Below are positions 57,787 to 58,122 of a stretch of DNA of 64,000 nucleotides, piece by piece (within the stretch, counting starts at the first letter, position 1; each line of letters starts with the position of its first letter). Made by a program: the position numbers and the translations under genes. The DNA is from Escherichia coli. Lineage in GTDB: Bacteria; Pseudomonadota; Gammaproteobacteria; Enterobacterales; Enterobacteriaceae. The notes under the pieces are model-generated. The model saw only the letters and a list, made by a program, of their open reading frames with translations, was not told the origin of the DNA and did no database searches. Location: assembly GCF_001677475.2 (NCBI RefSeq), contig NZ_CP015229.1; one strand, written 5' to 3'.

Positions 57787-58122
57787 ATGAAGTGGATTGT
57801 GATTGACACAGTTATCCAGCCATCATGTGGAATATCTTTTTCAGCCATATGGAGTAAAATAAAATTAATAATCTGGTATCAATCGGATGTTTTCTTACCT
57901 CCTGAAAGTATATTTACGCTGACTCACACAGGTATCGTACTCAATAACAAAGTGCTACCTGTAACCATTTACAACGTTGTACCATTCAATAAAAGATTCT
58001 GGGATTTAATCAAAAACAGCCAAGAATGCCCTGCAAATTCAGATAACGTATTTAATGAATGCTTTAATAACCGTTGCATTCTGCAAATATGCCCCTACGG
58101 GCTAAAACGACACAGGCCATAA
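57787..58122 (+). CDS. hypothetical Cys-rich small protein in AT-rich segment
   Basis: 111-aa ORF with AAGGAA RBS; opposite strand to late operon. Confidence 0.4.

Follow-up and report, generated by a model that had tools for sequence, protein, structure and literature searches.

Of the described inhibitors of RssB, the response-regulator adaptor that passes sigma-S (RpoS) to ClpXP, the two closest to the gene considered here are IraL and IraM. IraL binds RssB both in two-hybrid assays (with the N-terminal domain only) and in pull-downs, approximately doubles the log-phase half-life of sigma-S, and raises sigma-S levels when iraL is supplied to K-12 under its own promoter (Hryckowian et al. 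2014, PMC4045071). In strain CFT073, iraL mRNA increases on a shift to 37 °C, and IraL is elevated in a fur mutant. IraM blocks RssB at its 4-5-5 face and the helical linker, and sigma-S is then not delivered to ClpXP; the structure of the complex reveals 15 contacts, namely I4, I6, W22, K26 and I42 in cluster I, T13, C14, F18, W30 and L75 in cluster II, I61, Y62, H63 and I64 in cluster III, and P66 (PMC10844676). Here, we describe a 111-residue gene at positions 57787–58122 of a 64,000-nucleotide stretch of Escherichia coli DNA (contig NZ_CP015229.1, assembly GCF_001677475.2; hereinafter the window), which is very probably a diverged iraL allele whose product acts as an RssB anti-adaptor, stabilizes sigma-S and is expressed in the lysogen.

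The open reading frame (ORF) lies on the plus strand, from an ATG to a TAA at 58120–58122 in the program-made ORF list, with a Shine–Dalgarno (SD) sequence AAGGAA (57776–57781) placed 5 nt before the start codon. Its guanine-plus-cytosine (GC) content is 36.3%, against 34.4% for the interval 57692–58165 and 51.1% for the window as a whole, and the minimum of the 300-nt GC profile (33%) falls here. An earlier note made from the sequence alone had singled out an AT-rich ORF of 111 residues with AAGGAA as its ribosome-binding site; its coordinates, SD and GC bias were all recovered, and our gene map likewise places it between the holin and the DUF3927/TerB genes, antisense to both. That note had recognized no function, a reading now superseded by the match to the IraM/IraL/RssC anti-adaptor family and the 89% identity to CFT073 IraL. 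The gene and its parts are as follows:

57787–58122, plus strand: iraL-type anti-adaptor gene, 111 residues plus stop (NF007393 match; identity to CFT073 iraL)
57787–58020, plus strand: PmrD-like beta-barrel core, residues 1–78, the predicted RssB-binding part
58027–58101, plus strand: Cys4 tail, residues 81–105, CP-x9-C-x4-C-x4-CPYG (from conserved columns)
57718–57746, plus strand: sigma-70 promoter, placed by homology, with the -35 region GGTTTACA at 57718–57725 and the -10 element TATACT at 57741–57746
57754–57786, plus strand: inferred transcription start A57754 and 33-nt 5' untranslated region, SD included (matched to the mapped iraL mRNA end)
57692–57717, plus strand: left boundary of conservation in the iraL cassette, at about -62 relative to the start site, with DNA beyond it unrelated to CFT073 (alignment of the window, CFT073 and 640R1)

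The protein matches the NCBIfam model NF007393, "anti-adapter protein IraM", with 163.9 bits (curated cut-off 121), its residues 1–110 covering positions 1–113 of the 114 in the profile. Residues 1–78 further match chain A of PDB 8TWD, the IraM bound to RssB (E = 6.2e-33), and adopt a PmrD-like antiparallel beta-barrel with a hairpin and a C-terminal helix; the predicted local distance difference test (pLDDT) score of this core in AlphaFold2 (AF2) models was 77–90 with 18 sequences and 85–95 with 51. Eleven of the 15 RssB-contact residues of IraM are identical in the window protein (I4, I6, W22, K26, I42, C14, F18, W30, I61, Y62 and P66), and the remaining four (S13, I75, N63 and V64) coincide with those of IraL. 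The closest relative is the 111-residue product of C_RS06710 of CFT073, with 89.2% identity at the amino-acid level and 93.2% at the nucleotide level. We take C_RS06710 to be iraL (old tag c1429): its prophage beside potC/potD fits the published "potB genomic island", and no other gene of the IraM family occurs in that 50-kb stretch. RefSeq already applies the label "anti-adapter protein IraM" to copies with 99.7–99.9% DNA identity in GB089, 09-00049, 08-00022 and bovine isolates.

The similarity to iraL extends into the control region. In a three-way alignment, the upstream DNA from 57692 (about -62) onward is nearly identical to that of CFT073 and of phage vB_EcoS-640R1, and both the -10 TATACT and the -35 region are identical in sequence to their counterparts upstream of CFT073 iraL. 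The iraL promoter was defined from an mRNA 5' end, ACATCACCAGCAAGGCATAAACAAGGAAACCA, mapped by rapid amplification of cDNA ends (5'RACE; PMC4045071); its counterpart in the window, from 57754 onward, is ACATCACCAGCAAGGCATAAATAAGGAAACTA, with 2 mismatches in 32 positions. A generic promoter scan missed the iraL promoter; its position here comes from homology with the one mapped by 5'RACE. The window gene shares with iraL the Q-to-holin interval, the strand opposite the late genes, and the conserved promoter and start site. Two candidate regulatory sites at the promoter were rejected: the best match to a PhoP box scored 8/12, so none is present, and the best match to a Fur box, 11/19, was at background level.

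Signatures of selection are consistent with a maintained protein. By the Nei–Gojobori method, the ratio of nonsynonymous to synonymous substitution rates (dN/dS) was 0.21 against iraL, 0.14 against the copy in Stx2c phages and 0.19 against K-12 iraM. Over the first 107 codons, it ranged from 0.14 to 0.21 against four relatives, with the tail alone (79–107) at 0.12–0.23 and the core (1–78) similar. A profile search of 1.84 billion representative sequences returned 158 matches at E ≤ 1e-3, and the members sampled from Salmonella salamae, Citrobacter, Kosakonia and E. coli bear IraM names; long matches in multiple stretches were Kelch-repeat or low-complexity proteins and were discarded as repeat artefacts. 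The earlier note had proposed homology and conservation as checks on the ORF; the many homologues and the purifying selection that they reveal mark it as more than a chance ORF. It is a real conserved gene, and its protein is one of the RssB anti-adaptors of the IraM/IraL/RssC family. Family membership, fold, contact residues, promoter, synteny and purifying selection are in this regard direct observations on the window gene. The gene and its family are already known, and this allele has diverged only a little.

Other annotation resources were less informative. An hmmscan against a local Pfam-A yielded nothing up to E = 10 for the ORF protein, K-12 IraM or IraL, whereas each homologue has PF11183 (PmrD) in its precomputed Pfam field; this discrepancy is due to Pfam versions or procedures, not biology. 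PHROGs assigned the ORF only to phrog_4407, "unknown function", and PADLOC found no defense-system match among the ORF and five neighbours.

In the mechanism that we propose, the gene's own sigma-70 promoter, starting at A57754, would drive it in the lysogen, antisense to the phage late operon; the anatomy of the locus suggests a lysogen-expressed moron. The N-terminal 78 residues would form the PmrD-like beta-barrel that binds RssB, and the bound RssB would be unable to pass sigma-S to ClpXP. Sigma-S would be stabilized because RssB could no longer hand it over to the protease, and the general stress regulon would rise during growth. After induction, Q-modified late transcription running antisense through the gene would dampen it. 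By analogy with the homologues, this allele is expected to bind RssB and stabilize sigma-S, while expression in the lysogen and its dampening by convergent late transcription are likewise what the arrangement predicts.

The C-terminal part of the protein tells a distinct story. The Cys-containing peptide emphasized in the earlier note corresponds to residues 81–105, and that emphasis was well placed: in an alignment of 51 homologues reaching down to 21% identity, C81, C97 and C102 are the sole invariant columns, with C92, P103, W72, W30, F18, P12 and M1 conserved in at least 90%. Among the 18 relatives of at least 53% identity, C81, P82, C92, C97, I101, C102 and P103 are invariant, and the core cysteine C14 is variable. 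The pattern C-x8-20-C-x3-7-C-x4-C occurs in 58 of 73 small homologues, followed in 56 of those 58 by P-[YFWHN]; the C-termini of the 15 that lack it look truncated or frameshifted. This motif, C-x(8-20)-C-x(3-7)-C-x4-C-P, is a family-wide observation of the present analysis and not a published criterion; the window protein has all of its elements (C81, C92, C97, C102 and P103). The Cys4 tail is conserved more strictly than any other element of the IraM/IraL/RssC family, and it is under purifying selection. The invariance of the four cysteines across the family contradicts the published view of the tail as poorly conserved: in the structural study, residues 79–107 were called less conserved and predicted flexible, and were removed because the full-length protein was proteolyzed, leaving residues 1–78, which still bind RssB (PMC10844676).

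No solved structure includes the tail, and a phmmer search of the PDB with it alone gave no match at E ≤ 10. Its pLDDT in AF2 models is below 50 with 18 sequences and 57–68, with a small beta-bridge, with 51 sequences, which is too low for a fold call. We found no published study in the literature on the family that addresses these cysteines. The earlier note's reading of the tail as metal-binding or disulfide-rich, suggested by its Cys pattern, is a reasonable conjecture, and our best guess is that the tail may bind a metal in a structural or regulatory role or act as a redox-sensitive stability element, dispensable for RssB binding. A bolder version, which we put forward tentatively, is that the tail, as a metal (Zn or Fe-S) or redox-sensing module, controls how stable or how active the anti-adaptor is; a second reading, held with the same reserve, is that diverged prophage alleles missed by surveys using ≥95% identity or polymerase chain reaction (PCR) account for the high log-phase sigma-S reported for some Shiga toxin-producing E. 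coli (STEC) "lacking iraL". If the former is true, the proteolysis of sigma-S would respond to metal or redox conditions through this tail.

Of 5426 complete E. coli genomes, 4757 contain IraM-family DNA, with 1–4 copies each. The iraL-type cassette of promoter plus coding sequence was found in 1445 of them, 1416 with 90–95% identity to the window (canonical iraL) and 29 with at least 95%; for the coding sequence alone, the best matches to the window allele number 1417 and 24 in the same two classes. Ground beef, lettuce, bovine faeces and humans are the sources of the closest matches. In the published survey, all iraL matches were at least 95% identical to CFT073, and iraL was under-represented in enterohaemorrhagic E. 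coli (EHEC)/STEC (PMC4045071). By their identity values, neither the window allele nor the 76%-identical Stx2c-phage gene would count as iraL under that definition, and prophage-borne anti-adaptors in STEC may be under-counted because the window allele lies below the survey's threshold. The gene call in itself adds little, since the RefSeq name IraM exists and the closest relative, IraL, has been characterized; the locus would nevertheless serve as an example of how a prophage "moron" can rewire the host's general stress response by shielding RpoS from ClpXP, in strains whose nearest matches point to cattle and food.

Several observations weigh against the assignment as a functional iraL allele. 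The protein has 12 amino-acid differences from IraL, three of them within the last four residues, and its 93.2% nucleotide identity falls short of the ≥95% used for iraL; by these values, the window gene is a sister allele rather than canonical iraL. The DNA upstream of about -62 is unlike that of CFT073, whereas the published complementing fragment reached -100 (PMC4045071). Further, IraL and IraM contact RssB differently, IraL scoring in the two-hybrid with the N-terminal domain alone (PMC4045071), and because of this difference the contacts from the IraM structure may not transfer exactly. One could picture a prophage passenger that is intact yet silent, or functionally decayed, and has ceased to act on RssB or RpoS: the allele is rare (about 24–29 of the 5426 genomes at ≥95% identity), the host prophage is mosaic, the DNA past -62 differs from the characterized iraL locus, and AT-rich DNA of this kind could be silenced by H-NS. 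Yet the reading frame is intact with a dN/dS of 0.21 against iraL, and the promoter hexamers, start site and SD are conserved along with contact residues that match IraL, which makes such a passenger improbable.

A change of partner, with the protein working as a PmrD-like connector for PmrA or a phage-relevant response regulator in place of RssB, is harder still to credit and we regard it as very improbable: identity to PmrD is only 14–15%, against 89% to the RssB-binding IraL, and IraM's RssB-contact residues are conserved. The invariance of the Cys4 motif across the family could alternatively point to a stand-alone small metal-binding or disulfide-rich (e.g., exported) protein with its main function in the Cys-rich part, but the N-terminus does not resemble a signal peptide, the RssB-binding core makes up two-thirds of the sequence, and the tail-less IraM(1–78) still forms a stable complex with RssB; we give this the lowest probability of all. 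An iraL-type anti-adaptor of RssB thus stands as our preferred reading.

The neighbourhood of this anti-adaptor gene has a recurrent feature. An Rfam match to RF02076 (STnc100) extends from 58342 to 58167 on the minus strand with 93.7 bits (gathering score 47); a terminator scan places its end at a hairpin (58172–58189) followed by a T-run, 44 nt past the ORF stop and between the two genes. Convergent STnc100 genes also lie 10–25 nt past the stop in CFT073 (43250–43439 of the examined locus), 640R1 and phage 1717 (at 6362–6550 in one of the two phage loci and at 6335–6546 in the other). The small RNA (sRNA) is thus convergent with an IraM/IraL-type gene at each of the four prophage or phage loci studied, 10–44 nt past the stop, and was not a neighbour in the K-12 iraM locus examined. 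Because the convergent pairing recurs across these loci, the anti-adaptor and the STnc100 sRNA form a cassette that moves as a unit. STnc100 is discussed in a 2026 preprint on Pas sRNAs, which leaves the IraM neighbour unmentioned. In the Stx2c phage 1717, STnc100 lies directly downstream of stx2cB. The order Q, IraM-family gene, holin, with the gene opposite the late strand, is shared by CFT073, phage 640R1 and Stx2c phage 1717. In the window, the neighbours are:

54967–55470, minus strand: Rz-type gene, a lysis gene left of the ORF
55768–56301, minus strand: lysozyme, a lysis gene left of the ORF
56376–56744, plus strand: ORF of 122 residues, PHROG 1853
56754–57395, minus strand: ORF of 213 residues, PHROG 1085
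57399–57614, minus strand: S21-type holin (Pfam PF04971), left neighbour of the ORF
58167–58342, minus strand: STnc100-family sRNA gene, convergent with the ORF, with terminator hairpin 58172–58189 (Rfam RF02076, terminator scan)
58384–58548, minus strand: DUF3927/TciB-like gene, right of the ORF
58545–58970, minus strand: TerB-family gene, right of the ORF

On the larger scale, positions 1–29278 are chromosomal (fliF to yodB) and 98% identical to GB089, beyond which lies a mosaic lambdoid prophage. The segment 55615–64000 is 99.75% identical to the GB089 prophage, with the tail genes at only 80–93% and some stretches matchless; the notion that the window is colinear with GB089 throughout proved wrong outside 55615–64000. 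The two ORFs of the lysis cassette between holin and lysozyme (56376–57395) are unassigned in function. In an AT-rich stretch just beyond the Rz-type gene, a near-perfect palindrome, AAAAATGATAATTGTTATCATTTTG (54491–54515), matches the Fur-box 19-mer consensus at 15/19 positions on both strands, the top score in the 64-kb window. At 60071–60221 and 60397–60885, both on the minus strand, lie two tRNA genes downstream of Q, whose counterparts in GB089 (a locus with 99.75% identity) are labelled tRNA-Gly and tRNA-Thr, and an adjoining truncated DNA methyltransferase gene.

Among known systems, IraD and IraP do the same job, inhibition of RssB with stabilization of sigma-S (PMC4045071, PMC10844676), with no sequence relationship to IraM or IraL. 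PmrD, which protects phospho-PmrA, has a clearly similar fold but only 14–18% identity, another target and no Cys4 tail in the aligned structures. RssC of Salmonella and the IraM-named homologues of Citrobacter and Kosakonia belong to the same family and have the same Cys4 motif, although these homologues are only 21–41% identical to the window protein; Salmonella Typhimurium RssC itself was not identified among them. K-12 IraM (YcgW, b1160; structure 8TWD), an RssB anti-adaptor dependent on Mg starvation and PhoP, shares 63.6% amino-acid identity, the fold, 11 of the 15 RssB contacts and the Cys4 tail. It differs in its length (107 residues), in an unrelated promoter region, in its site beside the e14 end rather than in the Q–S interval, in lacking the STnc100 neighbour, and in its PhoP dependence, whereas no PhoP box was found upstream of the window gene. 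The IraM-like gene of the Stx2c phages 1717 and 2851 (75.7% amino-acid identity) likewise lies antisense in the Q-to-holin interval, immediately after the STnc100 gene; this uncharacterized gene differs in coding for 107 residues and in lying directly downstream of stx2cB and upstream of a SASA esterase gene.

The nearest comparison remains CFT073 IraL. Both proteins have 111 residues. Each gene is found between Q and the holin of a lambdoid prophage and runs opposite to the late genes, with the STnc100 sRNA and a DUF3927 gene downstream of it. The 12 changes include (window residue first) A20V, V35A, V51M, R70T and D73N, as well as the C-terminal RHRP versus QQSP. In CFT073, a DUF1737 gene and a hypothetical gene intervene before the holin, which in the window is directly adjacent, and the prophage site there is potB/potC, whereas in the window it is next to yodB. 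The CFT073 "potB genomic island" (1328014–1351137) is an ordinary lambdoid prophage by potC, with integrase, dicB, Q, tRNAs, holin, lysozyme and terminase; CFT073 iraL is therefore prophage-borne, as is its sister in the window.
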